36,954 nucleotides of DNA from Gammaproteobacteria bacterium (lineage in GTDB: Bacteria > Pseudomonadota > Gammaproteobacteria > Pseudomonadales > Pseudohongiellaceae), in contig NYWC01000113.1 in NCBI GenBank assembly GCA_002684935.1, positions 1-36,954 of the forward strand, written 5' to 3'. The notes under the pieces were generated by a model, which was not told the origin of the DNA, made no database searches, and saw only the letters and a program-made list of their open reading frames with translations. The position numbers and the translations under genes are program-made. Shown here one piece after another: positions 1 to 36,954 of the stretch (its first letter is position 1; each line of letters begins with the position of its first letter).

Positions 1-707
1 TGGCTGCAAGCTGGTCAGAGAAGGCTTACAACCAGAAGAATAAGGACGCCATAAAGATAGAAAACAAGATCACAGGAGCCACGGCTTTTGTAATCAAGCG
101 CAAAAGCATAGATGTTATTGCTTTTCGAGGTACTGAGAAAAAGCTAAACGACATCATAACTGACCTGACTGCTATCCCGGTTCCGTATGCCGGAAGGATG
201 TGCCACGCAGGTTTCGTTCTACAACACGCTTCTATCTGGAAAGAGATCAAGAAGCACATTGACCCAAAAAAGCGAACGATGTTTACAGGCCACAGTCTAG
301 GAGGTGCGCTCGCAGAGATGTCTGCCTCCAAGATGAACGGCAAGCACGACAATATCAATCTCATCACATTCGGTAAGCCGAACACGTTTTTTAAAGGCTT
401 TAAGAGGCCGATGAAGCTCGACAATCAGATATCCTGCGTAAACGGCAGTGATATGGTTGCACGAGTCCCACGGCTGCTCTACGGGCCTTCTAAGTCGCAG
501 ACAATGCTATACTTTAGCAATACAGGCCCAGACTATATAAATCCCAGCAAGGACACTAGAAGAGCTGACAGAGGCGGCGTGGCGGATAGAGTCGCTGACC
601 ACAGCATGAACGATTACAAGAAAAGGCTAAAAGAGTATCTTGATTCTCAAGAGAAGGTAAAGCCTATAAACCAAGAAGCTGCTAGGCAACTGGAGAAAAT
701 GAAATGA
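1..707 (+). CDS. Class-3 lipase/esterase, 5'-truncated by the window edge (full copy at 34268..35002)
   Basis: In frame with the full copy. Carries the GHSLGG nucleophile elbow, the GSDMVARVP Asp motif and the ADHSMNDY His motif. Confidence 0.7.
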   Translation, partial: AASWSEKAYNQKNKDAIKIENKITGATAFVIKRKSIDVIAFRGTEKKLNDIITDLTAIPVPYAGRMCHAGFVLQHASIWKEIKKHIDPKKRTMFTGHSLGGALAEMSASKMNGKHDNINLITFGKPNTFFKGFKRPMKLDNQISCVNGSDMVARVPRLLYGPSKSQTMLYFSNTGPDYINPSKDTRRADRGGVADRVADHSMNDYKKRLKEYLDSQEKVKPINQEAARQLEKMK

Positions 708-907
708 GACTGATCGGTTTATTGTTTGTTTTTACGTTATCAAGCTGCACATCTGTTGAACAAGTTATTGCTAACAAAGAAATATACTGCTCTTCCTTTT
801 ACAAAGGTGTTCGGGCAGTGGGCAGAGGAGCGCTTTCTGCTACGGCTGGCGTTATTGTTCCTGACGTTTGCGACACAATTGACACTATTGTGGAAACTGT
901 CGAATGA
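704..907 (+). CDS. Small lipoprotein (o-spanin or exclusion-lipoprotein candidate)
   Basis: MRLIGLLFVFTLSSC is a signal peptide plus lipobox L-S-S-C. Its start overlaps the lipase stop as ATGA. The mature part is about 52 aa with 2 further Cys. Confidence 0.6.
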   Translation: MRLIGLLFVFTLSSCTSVEQVIANKEIYCSSFYKGVRAVGRGALSATAGVIVPDVCDTIDTIVETVE

Positions 908-1371
908 AATTAGGCGGCTTGCTAAAGTCCCTTGCTCCGACTATAGCTAGTGCTGCAGGCGGTCCGATGGCAGGAATGGCTGTAAAGATGGCTGCATCTA
1001 AACTAGGCTTGCCTGAAACTGCAACTGCTAATGAAATCGAGGATTTAATAGAGCGCGAACCTGACAAAGCGGTTCTTGTAAAACAAGCAGATCAAGATTT
1101 TAAAACAAAGATCCGAGAAATGGAGATAGACCTTGAGTCATTTAAGACTGAGGTTGAGGACAGGAAGGATGCTAGGACTAAGTTTGCAAGCGATGTTACG
1201 CCTAAAGTCTTTTGCATTCTTGCTCTTATTTTGTACGGAGCTTATGTAATGACCGTGACTATTCTGCCTCATGATCAAAATGATGAGACCATAATCTCAC
1301 TCGTGCTGGGCCAGCTATCAGGAATACTGGGAACCTGCGCGGCGTTCTTCTATGGAGGCTCTCAGAAGTGA
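904..1371 (+). CDS. Putative holin (amphipathic/charged N-terminal half, two C-terminal TMDs)
   Basis: Hydrophobic segments VFCILALILYGAYVMTVTIL and IISLVLGQLSGILGTCAAFFYG. Sits directly upstream of the lysozyme, with an ATGA overlap upstream and a GTGA overlap downstream. Confidence 0.5.
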   Translation: MKLGGLLKSLAPTIASAAGGPMAGMAVKMAASKLGLPETATANEIEDLIEREPDKAVLVKQADQDFKTKIREMEIDLESFKTEVEDRKDARTKFASDVTPKVFCILALILYGAYVMTVTILPHDQNDETIISLVLGQLSGILGTCAAFFYGGSQK

Positions 1372-1799
1372 ATAAGATGGATAAGCTAATTGAACAACTA
1401 AAGCGCCACGAGGGCGTAGAGACTCACGCTTACAAATGCTCAAGCGGTAAGCTGACTATTGGCGTTGGTAGAAATATTGATCCAGAGGGCGGCATAGGGC
1501 TGGCAATGGAAGAGATAGAATACCTGCTGTCCAATGACATCCTTCGATGTATAAAAGAGCTTAGCGCTGAGTATCCGTGGTTTGGTCAACTAGATGAAAC
1601 TCGTCAGGAGGCAATCATCAATATCTTCCTGAATCTGGGTGCGACAAGGTTCCGGCTTTTTAAGCGAGCATTAGCCGCGATGGAAGAGGGTAATTACGAT
1701 GAGGCTAGCACTGAGTTTCTTGATAGCCGATGGGCAAAGCAGGTAGGCGGTAGAGCGTTAGAGCTTACCGATATCATAAGGTCAGGCGAGTATGTATGA
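1368..1799 (+). CDS. Endolysin, T4/P22-type lysozyme (GH24)
   Basis: LKRHEGVETHAYKCSSGKLTIGVGRNI matches the GH24 EG...AY.D..G..TIGxG signature, with Cys at the usual Asp position. GGAGG lies 10 nt upstream of the GTG start. Confidence 0.85.
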   Translation: MNKMDKLIEQLKRHEGVETHAYKCSSGKLTIGVGRNIDPEGGIGLAMEEIEYLLSNDILRCIKELSAEYPWFGQLDETRQEAIINIFLNLGATRFRLFKRALAAMEEGNYDEASTEFLDSRWAKQVGGRALELTDIIRSGEYV

Positions 1800-2190
1800 T
1801 CCTTATATTTACGTTTGTGAGATAGTGAAGGTTGTTGATGGAGACACTATTGATGTTAATGTTGATTTGGGTTGGTCTGTTAGTGTGCGTAAGCAGCGCA
1901 TTCGTTTGTATGGTATTGACGCTCCCGAGTCTCGCACTAGAGATTTGGAAGAAAAACAATTCGGCAAAGCCTCTAAGAAGTTTGTCAAAGACTTTCTGAA
2001 CAGCGATCACATACTTCTCAAGACGAGAGAGAAAGGCAAGTACGGCAGATATTTAGGTGATTTCTGCGTAGATGATAAATGGCTCTGCGATGAGATGATA
2101 CAAGCTCACCACGCTGTCCCATATTACGGGCAGAACAAAGCTGATATAGCAGCCGCACACATCCGCAACAGAGCCTTAGTGAAGCTCTGA
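1792..2190 (+). CDS. Staphylococcal-nuclease-like (SNase/thermonuclease fold) nuclease
   Basis: VVDGDTIDV ... RIRLYGIDAPE ... GKYGRYLGD are the classic SNase motifs. Overlaps the lysozyme stop by 8 nt. Confidence 0.75.
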   Translation: MYDPYIYVCEIVKVVDGDTIDVNVDLGWSVSVRKQRIRLYGIDAPESRTRDLEEKQFGKASKKFVKDFLNSDHILLKTREKGKYGRYLGDFCVDDKWLCDEMIQAHHAVPYYGQNKADIAAAHIRNRALVKL

Positions 2191-2394
2191 GCCGTAGCGG
2201 TCACTCTCTTCCATATACCTAAAGAACTCTTTGCTCCGAGCTTCATCACCAAAAACAAAATCTTCAAGATGTCCAAGGTTCCAAGCAAGCGTGGCGATGT
2301 AGTTGAGGTCACGGCTGTTAAAGTTTTCAGCAGCTTTCTTCAGCCATTCTTCGCAGTCTTCTGGATTCTTCAAAATAAAACTTATGCCTTCCAT
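2176..2394 (-). CDS. Hypothetical protein (72 aa), last gene of the leftward operon
   Basis: ORF coupled by a 13-nt overlap to the upstream minus-strand gene. No recognisable motif. Confidence 0.55.
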   Translation of the reverse strand: MEGISFILKNPEDCEEWLKKAAENFNSRDLNYIATLAWNLGHLEDFVFGDEARSKEFFRYMEESDRYGSELH

Positions 2395-2888
2395 TTTGCG
2401 ATCTCTTCGATATCTTTTAAATAACGGTATCCTAACAGCCTAGCGTCTGATTTTATTGGCCTAGTCTTAACTATTTCTCCGGCGGCGTAATCCTTTCCTT
2501 TTTTTGTGGTCCAAAACCATTCTTTGCTGCAGTAGCCCATAACAGCAATTTCTTCTTTGTCTATGTCAACGCAGCAAAAAATGTAAACATCACACTTTTG
2601 ATGGTCTCGGAGATACGCCGTAACCAATCCGTTACCTGCTTCTCGCTTTCCGTACTTCGACGCTCGACTACTTTTAACGTCAAATCTAAGACCCTTCACA
2701 ATTAGATCGTAATCTTTGGAATCGGAAAAATCAAAAGAGATGCCGAGTCCATCTAATACCTGACAGGTAGCTAGCTCGCCAAGAGTGCCTGTTATCTTGC
2801 TGTTACTATTTACGCTTTGATGATTTAGCGTTTCAGGCTCGCCGTAGGCAATGTCTAACCAGTTGGGATCAATCTTCAGTATTATCAT
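2382..2888 (-). CDS. Putative PD-(D/E)xK-fold nuclease
   Basis: GTLGE ... DYDLIV ... FDVKS fits an E / D / (D/E)xK arrangement. Lies in the recombination operon. Confidence 0.4.
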   Translation of the reverse strand: MIILKIDPNWLDIAYGEPETLNHQSVNSNSKITGTLGELATCQVLDGLGISFDFSDSKDYDLIVKGLRFDVKSSRASKYGKREAGNGLVTAYLRDHQKCDVYIFCCVDIDKEEIAVMGYCSKEWFWTTKKGKDYAAGEIVKTRPIKSDARLLGYRYLKDIEEIAKWKA

Positions 2889-3288
2889 TCACAGGCCACG
2901 GAACGTGGATGCCGAACTTTTCGCCAAGGTATTTATTCAAAACTTCATACGTTTTAATGTAGTCTACTTTGTTTACCTTTGCGCTTGATTCTTCACCCGT
3001 CTGAGCCTTCTGCACGGGTTTCCACAAGTAGCTTTTAACAGCCTCACGGTTCCATTCGATCTCTGGATGATGCTCAAGCAGAACTCGTACATCTAAATGG
3101 CGTTCGTTCAGCTCAGCGGCTATCTGTTCGCACCATAAATGAAGTGCAGAGTTTTGCCTGATGCTCCGCTGCTTACCTGTCTTGCAGGTTATGACCAGAT
3201 ATCGGTCCTTTTGCCAAGCCTCTTCGATATGCTTCTTAACATTTTCTAGCTTATGCTCAGTGTTTACGATCCACAACTCACCCGTCAT
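2869..3288 (-). CDS. NinB/Orf-like recombination mediator
   Basis: KQRSIRQNSALHLWCEQIA resembles the lambda NinB RSLDQNRKLWACL core. Size is 139 aa and the context is a nin-type module. Confidence 0.5.
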   Translation of the reverse strand: MTGELWIVNTEHKLENVKKHIEEAWQKDRYLVITCKTGKQRSIRQNSALHLWCEQIAAELNERHLDVRVLLEHHPEIEWNREAVKSYLWKPVQKAQTGEESSAKVNKVDYIKTYEVLNKYLGEKFGIHVPWPVNDNTED

Positions 3289-3297
3289 TTGAGTCTC

Positions 3298-3723
3298 CTA
3301 GTATTCAATGATGTCTATAAAACCAACCGCACCAGCATCTCTGACAGCCTTGATGCGCTTGTACTCCTCACGGTAGTGCCGTGCCACATCCTTCTTGTTC
3401 TTGTTGATGGTCTTAGCTAGGCCGATGTCGTTGCGTTTCTCACGCAGTATCTCAAGCATCGCCTCTCCTACCTTGTTGACCATCCATTTGTGAAAGTCAT
3501 CCGGGTTGCCGCCGAGTTTCTGATGGCATCCGAAGCAATGAGCAAAAACATTGTCAGGGCAATATCTTATAGCCTTGTGCCGCCGAGAGAAGTAGTGCGA
3601 GGCGTGGAGCGCAGAGCTGTTCTCCTCGTACTTCTTCCCGCAGCATTCACAAGTCCAATCAGCAGCCTCTCGGACGCACTTGGAAAACCATCTATCTTCT
3701 GGCTTGATGGTTATCTTAGGCAT
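3298..3723 (-). CDS. NinG/Rap-like Cys/His-rich endonuclease
   Basis: CECCG ... HASHYFSRR ... HCFGCHQKLGGN parallels the lambda NinG CISCG...AGHY...QCVVCNQHKSGN pattern. Confidence 0.45.
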   Translation of the reverse strand: MPKITIKPEDRWFSKCVREAADWTCECCGKKYEENSSALHASHYFSRRHKAIRYCPDNVFAHCFGCHQKLGGNPDDFHKWMVNKVGEAMLEILREKRNDIGLAKTINKNKKDVARHYREEYKRIKAVRDAGAVGFIDIIEY

Positions 3724-3946
3724 CAGACTTCCTCACCTTTACAATATGAAAGCCGCCATTGGTGACCTGCTGAACGTCAAAGGTAATATCCTTGCCGCGC
3801 AGCCAGCCTTTGATTGACCAGTAAGCTCTCCGCATTTCATCGTAATCCTCAAACTCGATGGCCTGCGAGTAGCCCATCTCAACAAACGCTTTTACTGCTT
3901 CGTTTTTGATCTGTCGCTCAGCTTTCTCAAATTCGACAACTTTCAT
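3716..3946 (-). CDS. Hypothetical protein (76 aa)
   Basis: ORF in a tight operon, with an 8-nt overlap downstream and a 1-nt overlap upstream. Confidence 0.55.
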   Translation of the reverse strand: MKVVEFEKAERQIKNEAVKAFVEMGYSQAIEFEDYDEMRRAYWSIKGWLRGKDITFDVQQVTNGGFHIVKVRKSDA

Positions 3947-4248
3947 CAGAACGGTACATCCTCAGCTAATTTAATTGTTGCGTCTGGACCGCTGGCAGGA
4001 TTAGGCGCTTCGCTCGCAATCTTTTCCCATTTCAAGGAAATAAATTTAGCACCAGTTTTACTGTTGGTATTTACCCAGCCTTTCAACTCATACCCGTATT
4101 GTGTCTTTTTTATCTGACCGGAATTTACAGCCTCAAACAGAGCCTTCATGTCATCCTCCGAAATGCTGGCGTAATACTGATCATCCTCAAACTTAGACTT
4201 ATTAATGCCCATCAACTGGACCCATTCTTTTGGCTTGTAACTATCCAT
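3946..4248 (-). CDS. Small protein with an SSB-like C-terminal tip (…LAEDVPF)
   Basis: Sits between the exonuclease and downstream genes. The C-terminus, an acidic residue followed by VPF, resembles the bacterial SSB D-I-P-F tip. Confidence 0.4.
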   Translation of the reverse strand: MDSYKPKEWVQLMGINKSKFEDDQYYASISEDDMKALFEAVNSGQIKKTQYGYELKGWVNTNSKTGAKFISLKWEKIASEAPNPASGPDATIKLAEDVPF

Positions 4249-4840
4249 CTATCAATCTCCTTGTTTGTTTATCTGCTAATTGTGCGGCCTCGATAATTAT
4301 CTTGGACGCTTTGTCGATCCATTCATCATCACGTTCTACTTTTAGTTTAAAATCATGATGATCTGGGTTGTAAGAGTAAAACCAGTAATAATCCAAGCCA
4401 AGCACCCACATAGTGCCTTGTACTTGCTGGAAATACTCGCTAGGAAGGCCGCCATCAAGCCTGTAACCTGTATGAGTATGACGCTCTGGGCATTTGATTT
4501 CGATGCCTGTATCGGCCCACAGGCCGTCTGGCGAGCACCCTACATCGTGATCGTCCAAAGCAATCATGCCAACCTGCTTAATCTCTATGTTGTGCAGCAG
4601 CTCAAATTTGCTTCGAGCTTCATCCTCTCGCTCAGTGCCTGTCTCCATTGATTTAGATTTGTAAGTTTCAATGGGTATAGGAACTTCGCGCTCAGCGACA
4701 ACTTTATTCAGGTAGGTTTTGGCTGACCGACTTTTAGTGCCTGTCGTTGTAACTAAAAGTTTGAAGTTAGACGCAGTGATGAACCCGCATCTGCTTCTCA
4801 GCCATTCATCGCTGCCTTGCTCGTGATAGAAATATCTCAT
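4241..4840 (-). CDS. YqaJ-type (lambda Exo-like) recombination exonuclease
   Basis: GSDEWLRSRCGFITASNFKLL is the YqaJ N-terminal signature. Adjacent to the annealase. Confidence 0.85.
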   Translation of the reverse strand: MRYFYHEQGSDEWLRSRCGFITASNFKLLVTTTGTKSRSAKTYLNKVVAEREVPIPIETYKSKSMETGTEREDEARSKFELLHNIEIKQVGMIALDDHDVGCSPDGLWADTGIEIKCPERHTHTGYRLDGGLPSEYFQQVQGTMWVLGLDYYWFYSYNPDHHDFKLKVERDDEWIDKASKIIIEAAQLADKQTRRLIDG

Positions 4841-5400
4841 AGGAATGAGTCCTGCTGAGATACTTGCTCTCGCTCTTTGAGAATCTTCCTAAGCTGGCTT
4901 ATCTGCTTGTCGCTTAGGTTCCAATTGTCAGCCTTCACAGACCGCAGGCAGGTCACCAGATTCATGCCAGCCTTCTCGCAGTCAGCCTTGATGCTGTCTA
5001 TCTTTCCGGTCTCAGCAGGTTCTTCTTCGTGCTGCGCGTCATTGTCGTTCTCAGGATCGCCCAGAGCGAACAGGCCCATCAGGCAGTAGCGCTTGGCGTA
5101 GGTATAGCCAGTGCCACAGCCTTGCTCTGTCTTCTTTACCTTATCGACTAGCGTGAGCTGGGAGTGTGACTGACCGCTCTTCAGATGGATCAAAGTAATA
5201 GTGCAGCCTACCTGATCCTCGGCGTTGACATCAGTGAAGTAGTACACAATATCATCACCGAAACAGTCTCTGGCAGCATCGTTCAGAACCGCTACAGACC
5301 AGTATTTCTGCTTGGTATGCTTATTAGTTTGGTCTTTTTCTGGTGTGACAAAATTGCCTCTGCATTTGGCAAAGGACTTCCAAAACTCAATGTTTTCCAT
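4837..5400 (-). CDS. erf: ERF-family single-strand annealing protein
   Basis: GTGYTYAKRYCLMGLFALGDPENDND closely parallels the P22 Erf SSYARKYCLNGLFGIDD core. First gene of the leftward operon. Confidence 0.8.
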   Translation of the reverse strand: MENIEFWKSFAKCRGNFVTPEKDQTNKHTKQKYWSVAVLNDAARDCFGDDIVYYFTDVNAEDQVGCTITLIHLKSGQSHSQLTLVDKVKKTEQGCGTGYTYAKRYCLMGLFALGDPENDNDAQHEEEPAETGKIDSIKADCEKAGMNLVTCLRSVKADNWNLSDKQISQLRKILKEREQVSQQDSFL

Positions 5401-27365: not shown

Positions 27366-30300
27366 TGGCTAGATTCGGCGAGATAAACGCACAATACTTT
27401 GATGACGCTGGCGATCCTCTAAGCAGCGGTAAGATATATTTCTACGAGACAGGTACGACTACTCTCAAGGATACCTTCAGCGACATCAACCAGACTATTG
27501 CTAACACCAATCCGGTCATTCTGAGCGCGGCTGGTAGGCAACCAAACATATTCTTCAGCGGTACTGCTAAGGCGATACTGGTAGACAAGAACGATGTGCA
27601 GATACTGGTCCGTGACCCTATAGGTCAGACAGCTAGTGTATTTGGTGACGGTTGGGTAGCTACGAAGATATACAGTGCTGATGCTGTGGTATTGGGTAGC
27701 GATGGTCAATACTACCGATCTCTCGCCGCAGGCAACCAGAACAACGATCCTACGTCTACGTCAGGATACTGGACGCTTCTCTACTCGGTAGAATGGAACG
27801 CCGGGATAACCTATCAAACTGGCGCAGTTGTTACTTACAACAATCTCCAGTATCAGAGTCTGCAGAACAGTAATTTAAACAACAATCCCGCCAGCGTTAC
27901 GGCATACTGGGCAAGCATAGCCTTTGCGTGGTTATCTACTCGCACCTACGCTATCCACGAGAATGTGGTAGGCACAGATGGCATCTTGTACACCAGTTTG
28001 CAAAACAGCAACACGGGTAACGTCCCAGCCAGCTCTGGCAGTCACTGGGTAGGTACGTCAGCGGCAGCAGCGGCGAGTGCTACGGCGGCGGCAAGCTCAG
28101 CGACAGCAGCGGCTACCTCTGCAACGAATGCGGCTACTTCTGCAACCAATGCTGGAAACAGTGCAACAGCGGCAGCTTCAAGTGCAACCAGTGCTGCCTC
28201 AAGTGCAACTACCGCTACTACAAAGGCTAGCGAAGCAGCAACGTCTGCTACAACAGCCACTACAAAAGCTGCAGAGGCATCAACATCTGCCTCAAATGCC
28301 GCAACCTCGGCAACTAACGCGGGCAACTCCGCAACTGCTGCGGCCAGCTCAGCTACTGCGGCTGCAACTTCAGAGACCAATGCCGGGAACTCGGCAACGG
28401 CTGCTGCAACCTCTGCGACTAACGCAGCAAGCAGTGCTACAGCAGCGGCTTCAAGTGCAACCACAGCAACAACTAAGGCTAGCGAGGCGGCAACCAGCGC
28501 TACTAATGCAGCTACGTCAGAAACTAATGCAGGCAACTCTGCTACAGCGGCAGCGACTTCAGCAACCAATGCAGCGACAAGTGCTACAGCAGCGGCAGGA
28601 AGTGCTACTTCGGCTGCTTCGTCAGCCACAGATGCGGCTAATAAATACGATGAATTTGATGATAGGTATCTAGGCGCTAAGTCGAGTGATCCAACAGTAG
28701 ACAACGATGGCAATGCGCTAGTTACTGGTGCGATTTATTTCAATACGTCTTCCAATGTGATGAAAGTATACGGAGGCTCTTCTTGGGCAAACGTAGCACC
28801 TACTGCAACAAGCATTACTTTATCTCAGGTGTCTGATGTCACAGCTACGGCAGCAGAGGTAAACGTATTAGATGGCATTCCTGCTGGTCTTACAGCTACA
28901 GAGTTGGGCTATGTGGATGGTGTGACCAGTAGTATACAAACACAGTTAAACAATATTTCTGTGACCGCTGGCACTCAAACCAAGACATACTCCGCAGGTG
29001 AAACATCTACTATTACCTTGTCGAGTAATGTGCTGTCTCCTGTCGTTGGAGTAACTAAAGAAGTGGCTCAGACAGGTGTAAGCAATAACGCTTGGGATGT
29101 AAATTCATCCTCAGAGAACTACACGAGATATAACACTGCTACTGCGACTACTTTGACACCTTCTGCTGTTGGTAATGGTACATTTACACTTGGGTCAGGG
29201 TCGTTTAGTTCTGCGGATGTTGGGAAAACAATTGTGGGTAATGGCGGAGTGGCAGTTCTTACCGCAACAAGTGGAGCCTATGTAACATCAACAAATTTCA
29301 CAAACACAAACGCAATAGCTTCAGGCTCTTGGCAAATGTATGCAATGGTATTTAACACAACGGACGGTGACTTAGAGCTAAGTGCTTATAGCGATACTTA
29401 TAATTTTAGTGCTCAAACACAACTTTATAATCCCACTTTTTATCAAGGCTCAGGCAGTGAAAGTGATTTTACAAGACCCGTAGGAATTCACTGGAATACT
29501 GCGGGTACTTATTTTACGACTATAGATAGTAATGGTGACAAATTATACACATGGGCAGCTAATGGTGCTTATGATGGCTCATCTTTTAGTTTAGATAACT
29601 CTCATAGTGTTAGCAGCCAGACAGGATCACCAACAGGGTTTTGCTTTCTTTACAATGGAGGTTCTTACAATAAATTATTTGTTGTTAGTGGAAGTACTAT
29701 TTTTTCATACAGTCTTACTGTCGCACAAAGAGTAAATGGTGGTACGTCGTATGATAATGTAAGCAAAGCAAGTATGTCTGATGTAACTGGTGTTCTAGTG
29801 ACTAATGATGGTACGCAAGTGTATTGTTGTGCTGATGATGGTGATATTTATCATTACACCATGAGTACTGCTAATGACCTATCAACAGCTTCAAACGCTG
29901 CTACTGGTGAGCAATTCCATTTGCCTAGTTACAGCAGTGCTACATGGAAAGATATGCAATATCAAAATAGTGGCACTGAGTTGTGGCTAATAGATGGCAG
30001 TAATTATATTTATAAATATTCATTATCTACAGCCTACCGTATAGAAACAGCAAGTTTTGTTGCTCGCTACTCCTTTACAGACCCACAAACTACAGCAGGA
30101 TTCGCAATAGAAAATAATGGCTCAAGATTCTATACAGTAGGCGATTATGGAAGATTATATGGATACAGTATTGGTGCAGGAGTAAGCATACCAACTGGCT
30201 ATCACGCAGCCCACACTATAACCTCCACAGACTCAACCTACTGGACTGACATCAACTCAATGACAGCAGATGAAGCTGCTGGTAATGGTGCTATCTACTA

Positions 30301-30754
30301 CTGCGTATCTACTGATGACCGAACAACTTGGAAGGTTGCCAAAGGTACTGATGGTGAAAGAAACATTGCTAAGAATAATTCAGGAACTTGGCAGTATAAC
30401 TCTAACGCGACTTATGGTTCAGAGACTTGGACTAACGCAACAGTCAATGCAGAGCTTTATGCCATACAGGAGGCGATGGGAACAGCAGCGAATCAAATGA
30501 ACAAAACCCAGCTAGACGCTATCCCTGATGCTAATCACTTTACGTTAGCTAACGATCTTGATCTAGCAATCATATTCAACATGAGCAGCGGCTCAACAAT
30601 TCCAAGCAGTGACGGTGTAGCTATCAACTATGATGCCAATGTCTTAAATCAAGGTGCAATACTAGGCACTGACTACACCTACGATGCGCCTGCGCAGAAC
30701 AAGGTTAGGATAACGTCAACGAGCGCGGCTAACTTAAAGGTTAGGATTGTTTAA
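27365..30754 (+). CDS. Tail fibre: conserved N-terminal anchor, 3 CBM5/12-like repeats, ~27 Ser/Ala/Thr heptads, beta-propeller-like distal domain
   Basis: Motifs [21 protein letters not shown], 3x W..Y..G..V...G..Y......N..P.....W, SATxAxx heptads, [28 protein letters not shown], and five Y-rich blade-like repeats. Confidence 0.8.
28058..28642 (+). repeat. 21-nt (heptad) tandem-repeat tract inside the tail fibre gene
   Basis: About 27 consecutive SAT(N/A/S/T)A(A/G/T)(S/T/N) heptads. All frames are open on both strands here, hence track ORFs 28042..28713(-) and 28077..28673(+). Confidence 0.9.
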
Positions 30755-30763
30755 TTTTGTGCG

Positions 30764-31657
30764 ATGAAAAAGTACGTTGCGGTTATAGTGGCCAGCTTTT
30801 TAGCTTTCCCTGTCTTTGGACAGGACACTACGACTAACATAAACACGACTGCAACTAACACTGCAACGTCTACCGCTACGTCTACAAATACCAATAATAA
30901 TAACAACGTAAACAGTAGCACGACTAACTATACTGGTACGTCTACGAACACTAATAATAACAACAACGTAAACACGAACACTAATACCAACAATACAGAT
31001 TACACTGGTACGTCTACTAACGTAAACACAAACACCAACACAAACACGACAGATTACACCGGGCTAATAACTAATTTAAACACTAACACCAACACGAATA
31101 GCACCACTAATAACAGCACTTCTGTTAGCAGCGCAACAAACGTAAATCAAAATACAAATAACAGTACCAGCGTGAATACATCGTTATCTAACAGCACAAG
31201 TTTTCAGACTACAAACTCTGTGTCGGACATTAACGCAATAAATCAAAACAGTAACACCAACACCAACAGCTCTATCAGTAATTCAACCCAGCGAGTTACT
31301 CAGAAAGTGGAATCACCGCCTCCATCAGCTATTGCGCCGTCAATAGGCAGCTCTTACAGCCAAGACCTTTGCACCACAGGTATATCAGGCGCTGTCCAAA
31401 CCCAAATACTTGGATTCTCTACCGGGAAGTCTGTTCGTGATCAAAACTGCGAAAGAATTAAATTGGGTAAGACCTTATATGATATGGGTATGCGTGTTGC
31501 AGCGGTAAGCCTCATGTGCCAAGACTACCGCGTGTGGTCTAGCATGATGTACGCAGGTACACCCTGTCCGTATGAAGGCAAGATAGGTGACGAGGCGAAA
31601 CTCTTGTGGGAGGCCAACCCAGACAAGATACCTGAGCCTGACAGGAGAGTGCGGTGA
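30764..31657 (+). CDS. Sec-exported Asn/Thr-rich low-complexity protein with a 4-Cys C-terminal domain
   Basis: Signal peptide MKKYVAVIVASFLAFPVFG-QD. TN-rich repeats with 3x (N/D)YTG(T/L) units. C-terminal ~110 aa are non-repetitive with 4 Cys. Confidence 0.7.
   Translation: MKKYVAVIVASFLAFPVFGQDTTTNINTTATNTATSTATSTNTNNNNNVNSSTTNYTGTSTNTNNNNNVNTNTNTNNTDYTGTSTNVNTNTNTNTTDYTGLITNLNTNTNTNSTTNNSTSVSSATNVNQNTNNSTSVNTSLSNSTSFQTTNSVSDINAINQNSNTNTNSSISNSTQRVTQKVESPPPSAIAPSIGSSYSQDLCTTGISGAVQTQILGFSTGKSVRDQNCERIKLGKTLYDMGMRVAAVSLMCQDYRVWSSMMYAGTPCPYEGKIGDEAKLLWEANPDKIPEPDRRVR
30827..31313 (+). repeat. Low-complexity ACN/AAY (Thr/Asn) tract
   Basis: Runs of aacaccaacac / aataataacaac read directly from the sequence. 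Confidence 0.85.
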
Positions 31658-33558
31658 AAAGGTTTGTACTGCTTTGCCTGCTTCCCGTGTTTGCGTCTGC
31701 CGCTGATCTCAGCCCAACAGGTATGACACAAGTCCTGAACGGTGTGGACGATAGTGCTTATCACGTTGAGCTTGGGCATACCTTCCCTCATCTGGATAAA
31801 GTGTTTACTGATGCGTGGATGTCCACCAACGGTTTTATTCTCCTCTGGTCGCCTACGAATAACCTTGGTCAGCAAACCCTGCCGACAGGTGGTCACTGCT
31901 GTGACGGATATAACTTTGGAGCGGGTACGCCTAATTATCTAGATAACAGAGTAGGGCAGTTTAGCTATATGCTTGCTCCATTATGGACAGATTTAGATGA
32001 CACTAACGTGTTTGATGATGACGGTTACTATTATTCTACTAATACAGAGCGGTCTAGTTTTCTTTGGTACAAGGTCAGGGAATACAACAATCCTCTGGCA
32101 ATGAATACCTTTCAGTTAAACATAGACAAGTCTGGAGGGTTTGAATACATCTACGATGACGTATTTATTAACAACCATGAGGTGTTTATAGGCTGGACAG
32201 GAGACACCGCAGCCGATCCGTTTTGGCACACTCAGCAGTTTTATGGAAATAAATTCACTATGAGTAGCACCTACGCCAACGCAACAGGAGCGCAGCTTAT
32301 ATCTGCTTATGGTGGTGATTTGTCTACTAATAGCTACAGCAATGGAAACTTTGGGCTTGTAGGTAGGCCAGATTGTACAAACCCTGCAAACGATTCAACT
32401 TGTGATGGCTACTGGGACGCGGTGGCGCAGTCTAGTGTGACCGATCAGTACACAGATAATGTGTTTGGCGATGAAGTAGAAGACTACTTCTTTACTGATA
32501 ATCAAAGTCGTCAAGGACAGCCACAGACTACACCGCCTCCACAGCCTTATCAAAACACTTCTCAAGAGCGCGAGATGTTCGGGCTTGCTCCCAGAGCAGA
32601 TGAGCCACCAACTGGAGAGCCTGAGCGTCCTGAGCAACAACGTCAGCAACAACAGCAGCAACCTGAGCCGATTGTAAGAACTGAACCTGAGCGCGTTGAA
32701 AGACCTGTAGAGGTAGCAGAAGAGCCAGTGCAGGTGGTTAGGGAATCAAGGCCCGAGCCACGCCCTGACCGTGCTGTAGTCCGTCAAGAACCCGTGGAAG
32801 TCGAGCGGGTGCAAAGAGAAGAGCGTGTAGAGATTGTTCGTGAGCCAGAACCCGAGAAAGAGGCAGAAAAAGTAATAGAGCGTGAGGTAATACGCCCTGC
32901 TGTCGATGTCGTGGGTATAGCTCTTAGCACTGTCGGGCAGTCAGCTTATCGAAATAATTCAGTCAATTCGCAAACACAGATGGTGCTTCAGGATCAGCAA
33001 GAGCTTGAACAGACAACAAGTGTTTTCAGCACCGAGGCTCAGATTACTCAAGTTGTAGCGCAACAAGCCCAGCAGCAGAAGACTAATACAATCACTACAT
33101 CGGAGCTTGCACCGCCAACGCAGATGCAGTTTGAGAATGATTTTAATGACGCGATAGCTACAGGCCAAAGCGTAGGTCAATTCCTGTCAGCACAGCTTCC
33201 AGATTTCAGCAGGTTTGACGTCTCGCCTCCCAGTCAAGATGAGCAACGTACAGTGCAACGGGCTGAGACTCAGATACAGACTATGAGCCAAGCTGATGTA
33301 CAGCAGAGCTTAGATAGTCAGCTAGAGAACTTAGAAGATACTGGCGGTTTTACCGATCAAAGTCTTGCGGTGTTTCTCATATCAAACAATCCAGCTTTCT
33401 CGCAGTACGACAACGTAAATATATCCGACAGACAACAGTTTTACTCGTCCACGCAGCCCTATCCATCGAACAGTATTCGGGCAAATCCATTAGGTGTGCT
33501 GCGCGTGACGGGTAATTCGGGCTATGACGATTTGGTGGATTTACAATGGCAGAGATAG
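31654..33558 (+). CDS. Sec-exported protein: NIDO-like N-terminal domain, Pro/Glu/Arg-rich (TonB-like) spacer, Gln-rich C-terminal region
   Basis: Signal peptide MKRFVLLCLLPVFASA-AD. LAPLWTDLDD...NTFQLNIDKSGGFEYIYDDV resembles the APFWxD...NTFQ signature. Spacer reads EPERPEQQRQQQQQQPEPIVRTEPERVERPVEVAEEP.... Confidence 0.7.
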   Translation: MKRFVLLCLLPVFASAADLSPTGMTQVLNGVDDSAYHVELGHTFPHLDKVFTDAWMSTNGFILLWSPTNNLGQQTLPTGGHCCDGYNFGAGTPNYLDNRVGQFSYMLAPLWTDLDDTNVFDDDGYYYSTNTERSSFLWYKVREYNNPLAMNTFQLNIDKSGGFEYIYDDVFINNHEVFIGWTGDTAADPFWHTQQFYGNKFTMSSTYANATGAQLISAYGGDLSTNSYSNGNFGLVGRPDCTNPANDSTCDGYWDAVAQSSVTDQYTDNVFGDEVEDYFFTDNQSRQGQPQTTPPPQPYQNTSQEREMFGLAPRADEPPTGEPERPEQQRQQQQQQPEPIVRTEPERVERPVEVAEEPVQVVRESRPEPRPDRAVVRQEPVEVERVQREERVEIVREPEPEKEAEKVIEREVIRPAVDVVGIALSTVGQSAYRNNSVNSQTQMVLQDQQELEQTTSVFSTEAQITQVVAQQAQQQKTNTITTSELAPPTQMQFENDFNDAIATGQSVGQFLSAQLPDFSRFDVSPPSQDEQRTVQRAETQIQTMSQADVQQSLDSQLENLEDTGGFTDQSLAVFLISNNPAFSQYDNVNISDRQQFYSSTQPYPSNSIRANPLGVLRVTGNSGYDDLVDLQWQR

Positions 33559-34049
33559 AAGTTGGCGAGGTAAAGCTTTCTGGCGGTAAGTTACTGCTTG
33601 TTATACCGTTTTTAGGTAGTATTGGCGCAGCGATGTGGGGCGGCTTCGAGTTGTATCAGCGTTTGTTAGATGCCGAAGAAGCAGTAACTGCCTACGTCTC
33701 ACCTGACTTTAGCTCGTATGATGAAGAATTAGCCGTACTAAGCACTAAATTAGATGCTGCTGAAGTCTTAATAGCAGCCGTTGAGCGAGCTTTAGATCAG
33801 GATATAGTTGAGCTAATGAACAACATTGACCGCCTACAGGTCGATATAGACGCCACAGAGCGCATTGCTAGAGGGACGGATGATTCTGTTGTCTTAGCCA
33901 CGAGAGAGCTTAGAGATGACGTGTACGCTTTAGAAGAGCGTGTAAACGACAGTCTTAGAGATGTAGATAACGAACTACGAGCAATGCGTGATGACCTTGA
34001 GGAACGTATCCAGCGCATACTGGATAACCCTTTAAACGTGGAAGAGTAA
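33546..34049 (+). CDS. Bitopic membrane protein with a coiled-coil ectodomain (i-spanin-like architecture)
   Basis: N-terminal TMD LLLVIPFLGSIGAAMWGGF followed by about 130 aa of charged helical sequence. Confidence 0.5.
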   Translation: MAEIEVGEVKLSGGKLLLVIPFLGSIGAAMWGGFELYQRLLDAEEAVTAYVSPDFSSYDEELAVLSTKLDAAEVLIAAVERALDQDIVELMNNIDRLQVDIDATERIARGTDDSVVLATRELRDDVYALEERVNDSLRDVDNELRAMRDDLEERIQRILDNPLNVEE

Positions 34050-34271
34050 ATGGAATTTCAAACTGGATTTAACGTATTTTTAGCAATCATTAGCTTTGGT
34101 GGCGGTTGGCTAGTTAATCGTGTTTTTGTCTTGCTTGATAGAATCGACGCTGACATGAAGCAAATACCTGAGAAGTATGTTGCCAAAGATGATTACCGCG
34201 AGGACATCCGTGAGATCAAAGAAACACTAGGCGCTATTTTTAAGAAACTAGATAACAAGGCCGAGAAATGA
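34050..34271 (+). CDS. Small single-TMD membrane protein (holin/antiholin candidate)
   Basis: FNVFLAIISFGGGWLVNRVFVLL followed by a highly charged C-terminus. 73 aa. Confidence 0.5.
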   Translation: MEFQTGFNVFLAIISFGGGWLVNRVFVLLDRIDADMKQIPEKYVAKDDYREDIREIKETLGAIFKKLDNKAEK

Positions 34272-35002
34272 AACTTGATCCTGTTTTACTAAATATGGCT
34301 GCAAGCTGGTCAGAGAAGGCTTACAACCAGAAGAATAAGGACGCCATAAAGATAGAAAACAAGATCACAGGAGCCACGGCTTTTGTAATCAAGCGCAAAA
34401 GCATAGATGTTATTGCTTTTCGAGGTACTGAGAAAAAGCTAAACGACATCATAACTGACCTGACTGCTATCCCGGTTCCGTATGCCGGAAGGATGTGCCA
34501 CGCAGGTTTCGTTCTACAACACGCTTCTATCTGGAAAGAGATCAAGAAGCACATTGACCCAAAAAAGCGAACGATGTTTACAGGCCACAGTCTAGGAGGT
34601 GCGCTCGCAGAGATGTCTGCCTCCAAGATGAACGGCAAGCACGACAATATCAATCTCATCACATTCGGTAAGCCGAACACGTTTTTTAAAGGCTTTAAGA
34701 GGCCGATGAAGCTCGACAATCAGATATCCTGCGTAAACGGCAGTGATATGGTTGCACGAGTCCCACGGCTGCTCTACGGGCCTTCTAAGTCGCAGACAAT
34801 GCTATACTTTAGCAATACAGGCCCAGACTATATAAATCCCAGCAAGGACACTAGAAGAGCTGACAGAGGCGGCGTGGCGGATAGAGTCGCTGACCACAGC
34901 ATGAACGATTACAAGAAAAGGCTAAAAGAGTATCTTGATTCTCAAGAGAAGGTAAAGCCTATAAACCAAGAAGCTGCTAGGCAACTGGAGAAAATGAAAT
35001 GA
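34268..35002 (+). CDS. Class-3 lipase/esterase (full-length copy, 244 aa, no signal peptide)
   Basis: AFRGT, HAGF, GHSLGGALA, GSDMVARVP and ADHSMNDY give a complete Ser/Asp/His set in the Lipase_3 order. Confidence 0.75.
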   Translation: MKLDPVLLNMAASWSEKAYNQKNKDAIKIENKITGATAFVIKRKSIDVIAFRGTEKKLNDIITDLTAIPVPYAGRMCHAGFVLQHASIWKEIKKHIDPKKRTMFTGHSLGGALAEMSASKMNGKHDNINLITFGKPNTFFKGFKRPMKLDNQISCVNGSDMVARVPRLLYGPSKSQTMLYFSNTGPDYINPSKDTRRADRGGVADRVADHSMNDYKKRLKEYLDSQEKVKPINQEAARQLEKMK

Positions 35003-35202
35003 GACTGATCGGTTTATTGTTTGTTTTTACGTTATCAAGCTGCACATCTGTTGAACAAGTTATTGCTAACAAAGAAATATACTGCTCTTCCTTTTACAAA
35101 GGTGTTCGGGCAGTGGGCAGAGGAGCGCTTTCTGCTACGGCTGGCGTTATTGTTCCTGACGTTTGCGACACAATTGACACTATTGTGGAAACTGTCGAAT
35201 GA
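34999..35202 (+). CDS. Small lipoprotein (second copy of 704..907)
   Basis: Identical to the first copy. Confidence 0.6.
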   Translation: MRLIGLLFVFTLSSCTSVEQVIANKEIYCSSFYKGVRAVGRGALSATAGVIVPDVCDTIDTIVETVE

Positions 35203-35666
35203 AATTAGGCGGCTTGCTAAAGTCCCTTGCTCCGACTATAGCTAGTGCTGCAGGCGGTCCGATGGCAGGAATGGCTGTAAAGATGGCTGCATCTAAACTA
35301 GGCTTGCCTGAAACTGCAACTGCTAATGAAATCGAGGATTTAATAGAGCGCGAACCTGACAAAGCGGTTCTTGTAAAACAAGCAGATCAAGATTTTAAAA
35401 CAAAGATCCGAGAAATGGAGATAGACCTTGAGTCATTTAAGACTGAGGTTGAGGACAGGAAGGATGCTAGGACTAAGTTTGCAAGCGATGTTACGCCTAA
35501 AGTCTTTTGCATTCTTGCTCTTATTTTGTACGGAGCTTATGTAATGACCGTGACTATTCTGCCTCATGATCAAAATGATGAGACCATAATCTCACTCGTG
35601 CTGGGCCAGCTATCAGGAATACTGGGAACCTGCGCGGCGTTCTTCTATGGAGGCTCTCAGAAGTGA
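35199..35666 (+). CDS. Putative holin (second copy of 904..1371)
   Basis: Identical to the first copy. Confidence 0.5.
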   Translation: MKLGGLLKSLAPTIASAAGGPMAGMAVKMAASKLGLPETATANEIEDLIEREPDKAVLVKQADQDFKTKIREMEIDLESFKTEVEDRKDARTKFASDVTPKVFCILALILYGAYVMTVTILPHDQNDETIISLVLGQLSGILGTCAAFFYGGSQK

Positions 35667-36094
35667 ATAAGATGGATAAGCTAATTGAACAACTAAAGCG
35701 CCACGAGGGCGTAGAGACTCACGCTTACAAATGCTCAAGCGGTAAGCTGACTATTGGCGTTGGTAGAAATATTGATCCAGAGGGCGGCATAGGGCTGGCA
35801 ATGGAAGAGATAGAATACCTGCTGTCCAATGACATCCTTCGATGTATAAAAGAGCTTAGCGCTGAGTATCCGTGGTTTGGTCAACTAGATGAAACTCGTC
35901 AGGAGGCAATCATCAATATCTTCCTGAATCTGGGTGCGACAAGGTTCCGGCTTTTTAAGCGAGCATTAGCCGCGATGGAAGAGGGCAATTACGATGAGGC
36001 TAGCACTGAGTTTCTTGATAGCCGATGGGCAAAGCAGGTAGGCGGTAGAGCGTTAGAGCTTACCGATATCATAAGGTCAGGCGAGTATGTATGA
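35663..36094 (+). CDS. GH24 lysozyme endolysin (second copy; carries the single synonymous difference at 35986)
   Basis: GGC vs GGT Gly codon. The protein is identical. Confidence 0.85.
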   Translation: MNKMDKLIEQLKRHEGVETHAYKCSSGKLTIGVGRNIDPEGGIGLAMEEIEYLLSNDILRCIKELSAEYPWFGQLDETRQEAIINIFLNLGATRFRLFKRALAAMEEGNYDEASTEFLDSRWAKQVGGRALELTDIIRSGEYV

Positions 36095-36485
36095 TCCTTA
36101 TATTTACGTTTGTGAGATAGTGAAGGTTGTTGATGGAGACACTATTGATGTTAATGTTGATTTGGGTTGGTCTGTTAGTGTGCGTAAGCAGCGCATTCGT
36201 TTGTATGGTATTGACGCTCCCGAGTCTCGCACTAGAGATTTGGAAGAAAAACAATTCGGCAAAGCCTCTAAGAAGTTTGTCAAAGACTTTCTGAACAGCG
36301 ATCACATACTTCTCAAGACGAGAGAGAAAGGCAAGTACGGCAGATATTTAGGTGATTTCTGCGTAGATGATAAATGGCTCTGCGATGAGATGATACAAGC
36401 TCACCACGCTGTCCCATATTACGGGCAGAACAAAGCTGATATAGCAGCCGCACACATCCGCAACAGAGCCTTAGTGAAGCTCTGA
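36087..36485 (+). CDS. SNase-like nuclease (second copy)
   Basis: Identical to 1792..2190. Confidence 0.75.
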   Translation: MYDPYIYVCEIVKVVDGDTIDVNVDLGWSVSVRKQRIRLYGIDAPESRTRDLEEKQFGKASKKFVKDFLNSDHILLKTREKGKYGRYLGDFCVDDKWLCDEMIQAHHAVPYYGQNKADIAAAHIRNRALVKL

Positions 36486-36689
36486 GCCGTAGCGGTCACT
36501 CTCTTCCATATACCTAAAGAACTCTTTGCTCCGAGCTTCATCACCAAAAACAAAATCTTCAAGATGTCCAAGGTTCCAAGCAAGCGTGGCGATGTAGTTG
36601 AGGTCACGGCTGTTAAAGTTTTCAGCAGCTTTCTTCAGCCATTCTTCGCAGTCTTCTGGATTCTTCAAAATAAAACTTATGCCTTCCAT
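36471..36689 (-). CDS. Hypothetical protein (second copy of 2176..2394)
   Basis: Identical to the first copy. Confidence 0.55.
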   Translation of the reverse strand: MEGISFILKNPEDCEEWLKKAAENFNSRDLNYIATLAWNLGHLEDFVFGDEARSKEFFRYMEESDRYGSELH

Positions 36690-36954
36690 TTTGCGATCTC
36701 TTCGATATCTTTTAAATAACGGTATCCTAACAGCCTAGCGTCTGATTTTATTGGCCTAGTCTTAACTATTTCTCCGGCGGCGTAATCCTTTCCTTTTTTT
36801 GTGGTCCAAAACCATTCTTTGCTGCAGTAGCCCATAACAGCAATTTCTTCTTTGTCTATGTCAACGCAGCAAAAAATGTAAACATCACACTTTTGATGGT
36901 CTCGGAGATACGCCGTAACCAATCCGTTACCTGCTTCTCGCTTTCCGTACTTCG
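36677..36954 (-). CDS. PD-(D/E)xK-like nuclease, 5'-truncated by the window end (second copy of 2382..2888)
   Basis: Same sequence as 2382..2659. The ORF runs off the window. Confidence 0.4.
   Translation of the reverse strand, partial: KYGKREAGNGLVTAYLRDHQKCDVYIFCCVDIDKEEIAVMGYCSKEWFWTTKKGKDYAAGEIVKTRPIKSDARLLGYRYLKDIEEIAKWKA

Follow-up and report, generated by a model that had tools for sequence, protein, structure and literature searches.

Lysis of a Gram-negative host is thought to require a third step, the disruption of the outer membrane. To our knowledge, the agents credited with this step have until now been spanins and, in rare cases, a cationic peptide of the disruptin type. In mycobacteriophages, LysB esterases are part of lysis and act on the lipid outer layer after holin and endolysin (PMC6116114). 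A siphovirus of Pseudomonas syringae pv. actinidiae carries a gene for a GDSL-like lipase 5' of holin and endolysin genes in a putative lysis cassette; perturbation of the outer membrane was proposed by its authors, and a chimera lost its outer-membrane-dependent antibacterial effect when the active site was mutated (PMC12173070). Colicin lysis lipoproteins bring about quasi-lysis through outer-membrane phospholipase A, releasing cytoplasmic macromolecules (PMC9517006). Here we describe a phage genome carried by a 36,954-nucleotide stretch of DNA (the window; contig NYWC01000113.1 of assembly GCA_002684935.1, Gammaproteobacteria bacterium) in which a predicted class-3 lipase gene (34268..35002, + strand) lies next to the gene for a small lipoprotein, lpp67 (34999..35202, + strand), among genes for a holin-like protein and a lysozyme. 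In the literature we searched, neither a Lipase_3 gene nor a pairing of lipase and lipoprotein is reported from the lysis cassette of a Gram-negative phage. The lipase would thus be a variant of a kind of lysis factor that is already known, the lipolytic kind; what appears to be new is its Lipase_3 type and its obligate pairing with a lipoprotein.

The lipase gene begins with ATG and encodes 244 amino acids in which GHSLGG (Ser108), GSDMVARVP (Asp160) and DHSMNDY (His210) follow one another. The initial annotation, a reading of the sequence without database searches, had recognized this as the order of motifs in Lipase_3, and it is confirmed by matches to Pfam Lipase_3 (PF01764; E=1e-16, 61.5 bits against a cutoff of 22, residues 48-167) and PHROG 21992 (esterase/lipase; E=5e-21) as well as by alignment to proteins of known structure. 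The best matches in a sequence search of the PDB are Thermomyces lanuginosus lipase and Aspergillus feruloyl esterase A; in the alignment to the former, GHSLGG falls onto GHSLGG and SDMVARVP onto NDIVPRLP, which we take to be the motifs of its catalytic Ser146 and Asp201. An AlphaFold2 model built from 39 homologues (predicted local distance difference test score, pLDDT, 92.4; predicted template modelling score, pTM, 0.89) has Ser108 at a strand-turn-helix elbow, with GHSLGG between strand 101-107 and helix 109-121, Asp160 following strand 151-157 and His210 preceding helix 212-228. The lid region is short and of lower confidence in the model (pLDDT about 80 at residues 51-70). Structural comparison with Foldseek returned feruloyl esterase A as the top match (1uza; E=2e-12, template modelling (TM) score 0.67), the lipases of T. 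lanuginosus and R. miehei at E about 1e-10, plant phospholipases A1 and, in a library of viral structures, class-3 lipases from giant viruses and uncultured phages. The three triad residues are kept in 139 of 139 distinct family sequences, in which H78-x-G80-F81 and G106-H107 are also invariant or nearly so.

Profile match, triad order and predicted fold therefore all place the protein in Lipase_3, far beyond chance. Sequence and model together indicate an intact class-3 lipase-fold serine hydrolase, and the gene product is probably an active serine esterase or lipase of this alpha/beta-hydrolase family. It shares with the fungal-type lipases, feruloyl esterase A and plant phospholipase A1 the GHSxG elbow, the Ser-Asp-His order, the H-x-G-F motif and the predicted fold. 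The fungal enzymes, however, are secreted, whereas the phage lipase is compact (about 230-260 amino acids), apparently restricted to phages and devoid of a signal peptide. This last point had been made for the single protein and extends to the family: the N-terminus is helix 1 of the predicted fold, and neither a signal peptide nor a hydrophobic N-terminus occurs in the 139 sequences, the highest 15-residue Kyte-Doolittle mean being 1.33.

Searching a collection of 5.8 billion proteins yielded 515 relatives of the lipase, all unannotated or generically named, many of them on marine contigs of 30-37 kb that include Tara samples. An exhaustive search of representatives gave 246 clusters at E<1e-10, among them a set of compact proteins of 220-260 amino acids with 35-48% identity and a conserved triad. 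The best matches among 185,579 bacterial and archaeal species representatives are partial and reach 26-37% identity, and because of this the compact subfamily appears to be specific to phages. A scan of bacterial genome representatives with the lipase family found no prophage. Among 50,697 phage records, searched at both the nucleotide and the protein level, there is neither a close relative with the lipase nor a cultured phage that shares DNA with the window.

The strongest signal in this family is one that the initial annotation had missed. We fetched 173 lipase loci, classed the neighbouring genes by iterated profiles and obtained 140 distinct lipase genes, 135 of which have sufficient downstream sequence for the lipoprotein to be counted. 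A lipoprotein gene lies immediately 3' of the lipase gene in all 135, usually overlapping it, down to 37% lipase identity; the pairing is obligate. The lipoprotein of the window, lpp67, is a precursor of 67 amino acids with the lipobox LSSC and the lipid-bearing Cys15. The lipid Cys is invariant in its family, which matches about 400 IMG/VR stretches, and two further Cys (29 and 56 in lpp67) are conserved. There is no Asp at position +2, which in E. coli implies sorting to the outer membrane. No family in Pfam, PHROG or NCBIfam corresponds to lpp67, and its AlphaFold2 model, a small helical bundle of moderate confidence (pLDDT 77), has no fold neighbour in the PDB. An identity as a T5 Llp-like or Rz1-like protein is unsupported, and the names YceK and EutH that JGI gives to some homologues look spurious. 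In function, lpp67 may be o-spanin-like, colicin-lysis-protein-like or receptor-blocking.

Seeding the search with the lipoprotein alone gave 58 evaluable loci, of which 53 have the lipase gene immediately 5' of that for the lipoprotein. The remaining five (L322-L326, with near-identical coordinates) lack the lipase and read portal, two small genes, lipoprotein, holin-like gene, lysozyme, nuclease. Co-occurrence is thus asymmetric: the lipase is never found without the lipoprotein (135/135), while the lipoprotein is sometimes found without the lipase (5/58). This pattern is typical of toxins and orphan immunity genes, and it recalls the Tle/Tli pairs of type VI secretion systems, in which a GxSxG lipase gene lies beside the gene for a small periplasmic lipoprotein and co-occurrence is likewise asymmetric. 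By this analogy lpp67 would inhibit the lipase in the periplasm, as Tli does with Tle lipases, and would either restrain the enzyme until a set time or shield infected or lysogenic cells from the lipase of their neighbours. The adjacent and overlapping genes would fit, as would the conserved Cys pair, which suggests a folded periplasmic domain. Unlike Tle/Tli, however, the present pair belongs to phage late genes coupled to holin and endolysin and has no secretion system to deliver it; the family matches of the annotated window genes are to phage families only, with no type VI secretion component, VgrG or PAAR among them. Moreover, a lipase without a signal peptide would meet a periplasmic inhibitor only after the holin has acted, when inhibition would defeat a role in lysis, and the lipase-less cassettes keep the lipoprotein beside holin-like and lysozyme genes, which argues that it has a lysis role of its own. 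We regard such an immunity function as very unlikely.

Beyond the lipoprotein, the surroundings of the lipase are those of a lysis cassette. In the window, the lipase stop overlaps the lpp67 start as ATGA at 34999-35002, an overlap the initial annotation had described correctly, and lpp67 is followed by the holin-like gene hol155 (35199..35666, + strand) and by a lysozyme of family PF00959 (35663..36094, + strand). Ninety-nine distinct lipase genes have at least 2.5 kb of downstream sequence; a homologous lysozyme lies within 2.6 kb downstream in 78 of these, hol155 in 70, and either or both in 89. The module occurs on P22-like contigs of 34-37 kb and on contigs of 52-56 kb, and also on a 110-kb locus that has an SU10-type adaptor gene in its flank (the one such locus with the flank resolved). 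This spread over different phage backbones suggests that it has moved between phage lineages as a unit. At locus L161, where the lipase has roughly 40% identity, an Amidase_2 endolysin (PF01510, E=1e-17; phrog_822, E=1e-55) is encoded directly upstream, which is an independent adjacency of lipase and endolysin, the latter non-homologous to the lysozyme of the window. The run at L161 (2643-4686) reads T7-lysozyme-type Amidase_2, lipase, a 154-residue lipoprotein and then, after a short interval, a lipoprotein that resembles lpp67. Genes 5' of other distant lipases encode XhlA-like proteins, which combine a coiled coil with a C-terminal transmembrane segment (L128 1302-1750, L153 3618-4048, L094 1240-1482), their matches being weak (PF10779; phrog_937, annotated 'hemolysin'). 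L128 and L153 have a second small lipoprotein upstream, so that the lipase is flanked by two lipoprotein genes, and one clade (L026 6009-6914; L027, L033, L034, L036, L037, L039, L041) has a 301-residue acidic protein between the lipoprotein and the holin-like gene. The placement in lysis cassettes that was first read from the window is conserved, then, across the apparently phage-specific subfamily, on at least two phage backbones and beside an Amidase_2 endolysin as well, and a survey of the neighbourhood, which had been suggested as a check, does not find the homologues consistently outside such cassettes.

The 155 amino acids of hol155 comprise a Gly/Ala-rich N-terminus, a coiled coil and two C-terminal transmembrane segments (about residues 101-121 and 130-150). 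Its single family match is phrog_1544, annotated as of unknown function; no Pfam family matches even at E<=10 and no NCBIfam family does, and the match expected of a gene transfer agent-type holin with three transmembrane segments was not found. Its homologues adjoin three unrelated families of endolysin, namely T4-type lysozyme, an M15/VanY-type peptidase in Vibrio phages 234P9 and 1.275.O (L010/L011 4001-4495) and GH108 in Rhodoferax phage P26218 (L331 1786-2316). By this association hol155 looks like a holin or holin-like lysis protein, of a holin family that is so far unannotated.

We propose that the lipase is a lipolytic lysis accessory that is released by the holin and works with the outer-membrane lipoprotein, and we give this proposal roughly even chances. 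The lipase gene would be expressed late, as part of a translationally coupled lysis cassette, and the protein, having no export signal, would accumulate in the cytoplasm like the soluble endolysin. Only when hol155 permeabilizes the inner membrane would it reach the envelope; that lipase and endolysin both lack a signal peptide is consistent with such release. There it may cleave the ester bonds of acyl chains in the envelope, most likely those of phospholipids in the inner leaflet of the outer membrane (phospholipase A1-type activity) or of acylated lipoproteins. In this process lpp67 could serve as dock, activator or co-effector, and the outer membrane would be weakened as the last step of lysis. 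Such an arrangement resembles that of colicin lysis protein and PldA in its two-part logic of a small lipoprotein plus a lipase or phospholipase, although PldA is a beta-barrel enzyme of the host and the present enzyme is a predicted soluble Lipase_3 protein of the phage that comes with holin and endolysin. The family libraries give no sign of homology between lpp67 and colicin lysis proteins, with which no direct comparison was made. Mature colicin lysis proteins are shorter than mature lpp67 (52 amino acids).

Several observations weigh against this proposal. At 40-49% lipase identity the homologous lysozyme is found downstream in 2 of 17 loci and hol155 in 7 of 17, and several of these loci continue instead with structural genes, an adaptor and a nozzle-like protein. 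Even in this identity range, however, neighbours of lysis type are retained, namely the Amidase_2 endolysin of L161 and, at other loci, the XhlA-like proteins. The closest structural neighbour is a feruloyl esterase and not a phospholipase, and the fold does not reveal substrate specificity. The cassettes L322-L326 do without the lipase, which is therefore dispensable for a cassette of that type. A protein with the topology of an inner-membrane spanin subunit, cc167, is encoded two genes upstream of the lipase, and disruption of the outer membrane may not need a lipase at all. Finally, the very distant Lipase_3 genes of phages P-SSM2 and Xoo-sp13 lie outside recognizable lysis cassettes, as only such very distant homologues do; the distant Lipase_3 genes found among phage records, in P-SSM2, Xanthomonas jumbo phages and single-amplified genomes of marine viruses, are none of them in lysis cassettes.

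Those of cyanophage P-SSM2 and the Xanthomonas jumbo phages stand among metabolic or unknown genes, as would be expected if the lipase were a cytoplasmic auxiliary metabolic esterase that remodels or scavenges host lipids (phospholipids, storage esters) and owed its position to late-operon packing. An enzyme of this sort would need no export signal, and some homologues are named pimeloyl-ACP methyl ester carboxylesterase by JGI; this name, however, is a generic alpha/beta-hydrolase COG label, which we do not accept as an identification. We give the metabolic explanation little credence, since the coupling to the lipoprotein is invariant, and the placement with holin-like, XhlA-like or endolysin genes near-invariant, over 37-100% identity and on different backbones, and since a phospholipase left unregulated in the cytoplasm would act on the inner membrane too early.

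Among the described systems, the closest analogue in logic is LysB of the mycobacteriophages D29 and Ms6, also a serine esterase without a signal peptide in a cassette with holin and endolysin. The parallel with LysB drawn in the initial annotation stands as an analogy of function; homology is not seen, as the sole LysB in the viral structure library (from Gordonia) was matched at E=0.07 and TM 0.2, and no cutinase or LysB family is among the Pfam, PHROG and NCBIfam matches of the lipase. LysB differs in its cutinase-like fold lineage and in having no obligate lipoprotein partner, and its substrate, mycolyl-arabinogalactan, is not expected in a host with Gram-negative-type features. The GDSL-like lipase of the P. 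syringae phage is likewise a lipolytic enzyme in the putative lysis cassette of a Gram-negative phage whose role in lysis is only proposed, but it has an SGNH/GDSL fold and a carbohydrate-binding domain, and no lipoprotein partner has been reported for it. LysB also sets a precedent in that it cuts the ester by which the outer layer is bound to the wall (PMC6116114). Following it, the present enzyme could be an esterase directed at lipoproteins, which the initial annotation had also raised as substrates: it would cut ester-linked acyl chains of host tethers of the Lpp/Pal type, so detaching the outer membrane from the wall, or those of lpp67, so releasing and activating the phage lipoprotein. 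The obligate genetic coupling of lipase and lipoprotein would suit this. The idea is purely inferential, however, wall tethers should be of little importance once the endolysin has acted, and lpp67 functions without the lipase in some cassettes; we judge it highly improbable.

How the proposed accessory relates to spanins depends on the genes just upstream. The 167 residues of cc167 (33546..34049, + strand) comprise an N-terminal transmembrane segment (about residues 15-36) and an acidic coiled coil, an i-spanin-like topology; its Pfam matches are weak and to coiled coils only, and no ORF with a lipobox is embedded in its gene. Between cc167 and the lipase lies tm73 (34050..34271, + strand; phrog_462, E=6e-8), 73 amino acids with an N-terminal transmembrane segment and a charged C-terminal helix. 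Its homologues stand directly 5' of the lipase in 78 loci and are replaced in other lineages by the XhlA-like proteins with a C-terminal transmembrane segment. As in the Rz/Rz1 pair of phage lambda, one protein (cc167) has an N-terminal transmembrane segment and a putative periplasmic coiled coil, the other (lpp67) is a small lipoprotein with a lipobox as expected of an o-spanin, and both belong to the lysis cassette. With both strands and nested starts counted, lpp67 is the only lipobox ORF in the genome, so that a two-component spanin, if one exists here, would have to use lpp67 in the outer membrane and cc167 (or tm73) in the inner membrane. Against a canonical spanin counts that the two genes are not embedded, overlapping or adjacent, being separated by tm73 and the lipase, that cc167 homologues occur in only 27 of the 173 lipase loci, and that lpp67 is helical and not proline-rich. 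Cassettes of the L322 type lack cc167, and some cassettes have no i-spanin-like gene at all.

The initial annotation had suggested that the lipase acts alongside or instead of spanins. Given an i-spanin-like protein encoded two genes upstream and a sole lipobox gene that is coupled to the lipase, 'alongside spanin-like proteins' is the more likely of the two, and 'instead of' is not favoured. A more ambitious version of the proposal would make lipase and lipoprotein an enzymatic system for outer-membrane disruption, in which the lipoprotein docks or activates a holin-released phospholipase and the pair replaces or backs up spanins in a large and abundant group of marine Gram-negative phages; taken as a whole we find this unlikely. 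Overall, the interpretation given in the initial annotation is partly supported.

The cassette ends with a nuclease gene. From tm73 through lipase, lpp67 and hol155 to the lysozyme, each successive pair of genes overlaps by ATGA or GTGA: ATGA joins the tm73 stop to the lipase start, and the GTGA start of the lysozyme overlaps the hol155 stop. A nuclease of the staphylococcal nuclease (SNase) family, with 132 amino acids and without a signal peptide (36087..36485, + strand; PF00565, E=4e-13; phrog_452, E=2e-35) is the last gene of the coupled run, its start overlapping the lysozyme stop by 8 nt. Promoter-like sites number 4 in 30000-36954 where 11.8 are expected, and terminator-like sites number 8 against 6.0 expected, not above chance. 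The overlaps and the lack of any excess of such sites fit a single, translationally coupled late transcript. The endolysin itself is a soluble lysozyme of the T4/P22 type (143 amino acids, E15-x8-C24-x5-T30; PF00959, E=1e-10; phrog_7) in which no signal-arrest-release or signal sequence was found. The SNase nuclease may degrade host DNA at or after lysis.

Lipase, lysozyme and nuclease are thus three translationally coupled hydrolases for three classes of polymer, and they could serve clean-up and dispersal after lysis: lipase and co-transcribed nuclease, released at lysis, would break down DNA and the fragments or vesicles left of the membranes, and would prevent progeny from being trapped in viscous debris or lost onto outer-membrane fragments that bear receptors, while rupture itself would not require the lipase. 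In 52 loci the nuclease gene is conserved 3' of that for the lysozyme, cassettes L322-L326 dispense with the lipase, and the i-spanin-like protein and lipoprotein could already deal with the outer membrane, all of which would agree with a post-lysis function. Yet the nuclease is missing from many lipase loci, and clean-up leaves the 135/135 coupling to a periplasmic or outer-membrane lipoprotein unexplained. On balance we think a clean-up function rather unlikely, and we prefer a lysis accessory that works with lpp67.

The cassette is part of a phage genome. Positions 1-2659 of the window repeat 34296-36954 over 2659 nt with 1 mismatch, so that the window represents a phage genome of 34,295 bp, either circularly closed or terminally redundant, in which the cassette occurs once although the window shows it twice. 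The second copy, from lipase residue 10 on (1..2190, + strand), is the terminal overlap of a circular contig and no second locus; the ORFs 198-707, 904-1371, 1368-1799 and 1792-2190 in the ORF list of the window mirror the cassette. The phage is a P22-like podovirus, as had been read from its virion genes: PHROG matches identify portal, Ad3, Hc3 connector proteins and an ejection protein, and terminase, a P22-type portal, scaffold, major capsid and tail fibres are encoded. The nearest relatives of the portal belong to Pseudoalteromonas and Vibrio podoviruses (41-44% identity), a weak hint at a marine gammaproteobacterial host. GC content is about 47%, and a scan of the window found no tRNA.

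The cassette sits 3' of the tail-fibre genes and of two genes for low-complexity proteins with Sec-type signal peptides, one Asn/Thr-rich (30764-31657; PHROG 20531, unknown function, E=1.5e-10) and one Gln/Glu/Pro-rich (p634, 634 amino acids; 31654-33558; no family match). In most related-contig loci p634 precedes cc167, and it always does so where the gene upstream of cc167 was recovered. On the minus strand, an early leftward module at 2176-5400 comprises an Erf-like annealing protein, a RecE-like exonuclease, a NinB/Orf-like protein and a NinG/Rap-like nuclease; no minus-strand ORF listed for this interval is longer than 199 amino acids, and the library searches covered part of the ORFs.

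The interest of this system rests on the obligate pairing of lipase and lipoprotein, on its abundance in marine viromes and on its testability in E. coli spanin-null lysis assays. Even if the lipase were merely an accessory, three uncharacterized families of lysis-cassette proteins are defined here, the lipase subfamily, lpp67 and hol155. There is also demand for phage enzymes that act on the outer membrane, as they can serve as partners for endolysins applied to Gram-negative bacteria from outside. If the proposed role is true, hundreds of uncultured marine phages would have an enzymatic, lipid-directed option for lysis of the outer membrane. Such an option would be a Gram-negative counterpart of mycobacteriophage LysB and a phage-encoded counterpart of colicin lysis protein and PldA, and would join spanins and disruptin-type peptides as another class of device for lysing the outer membrane.

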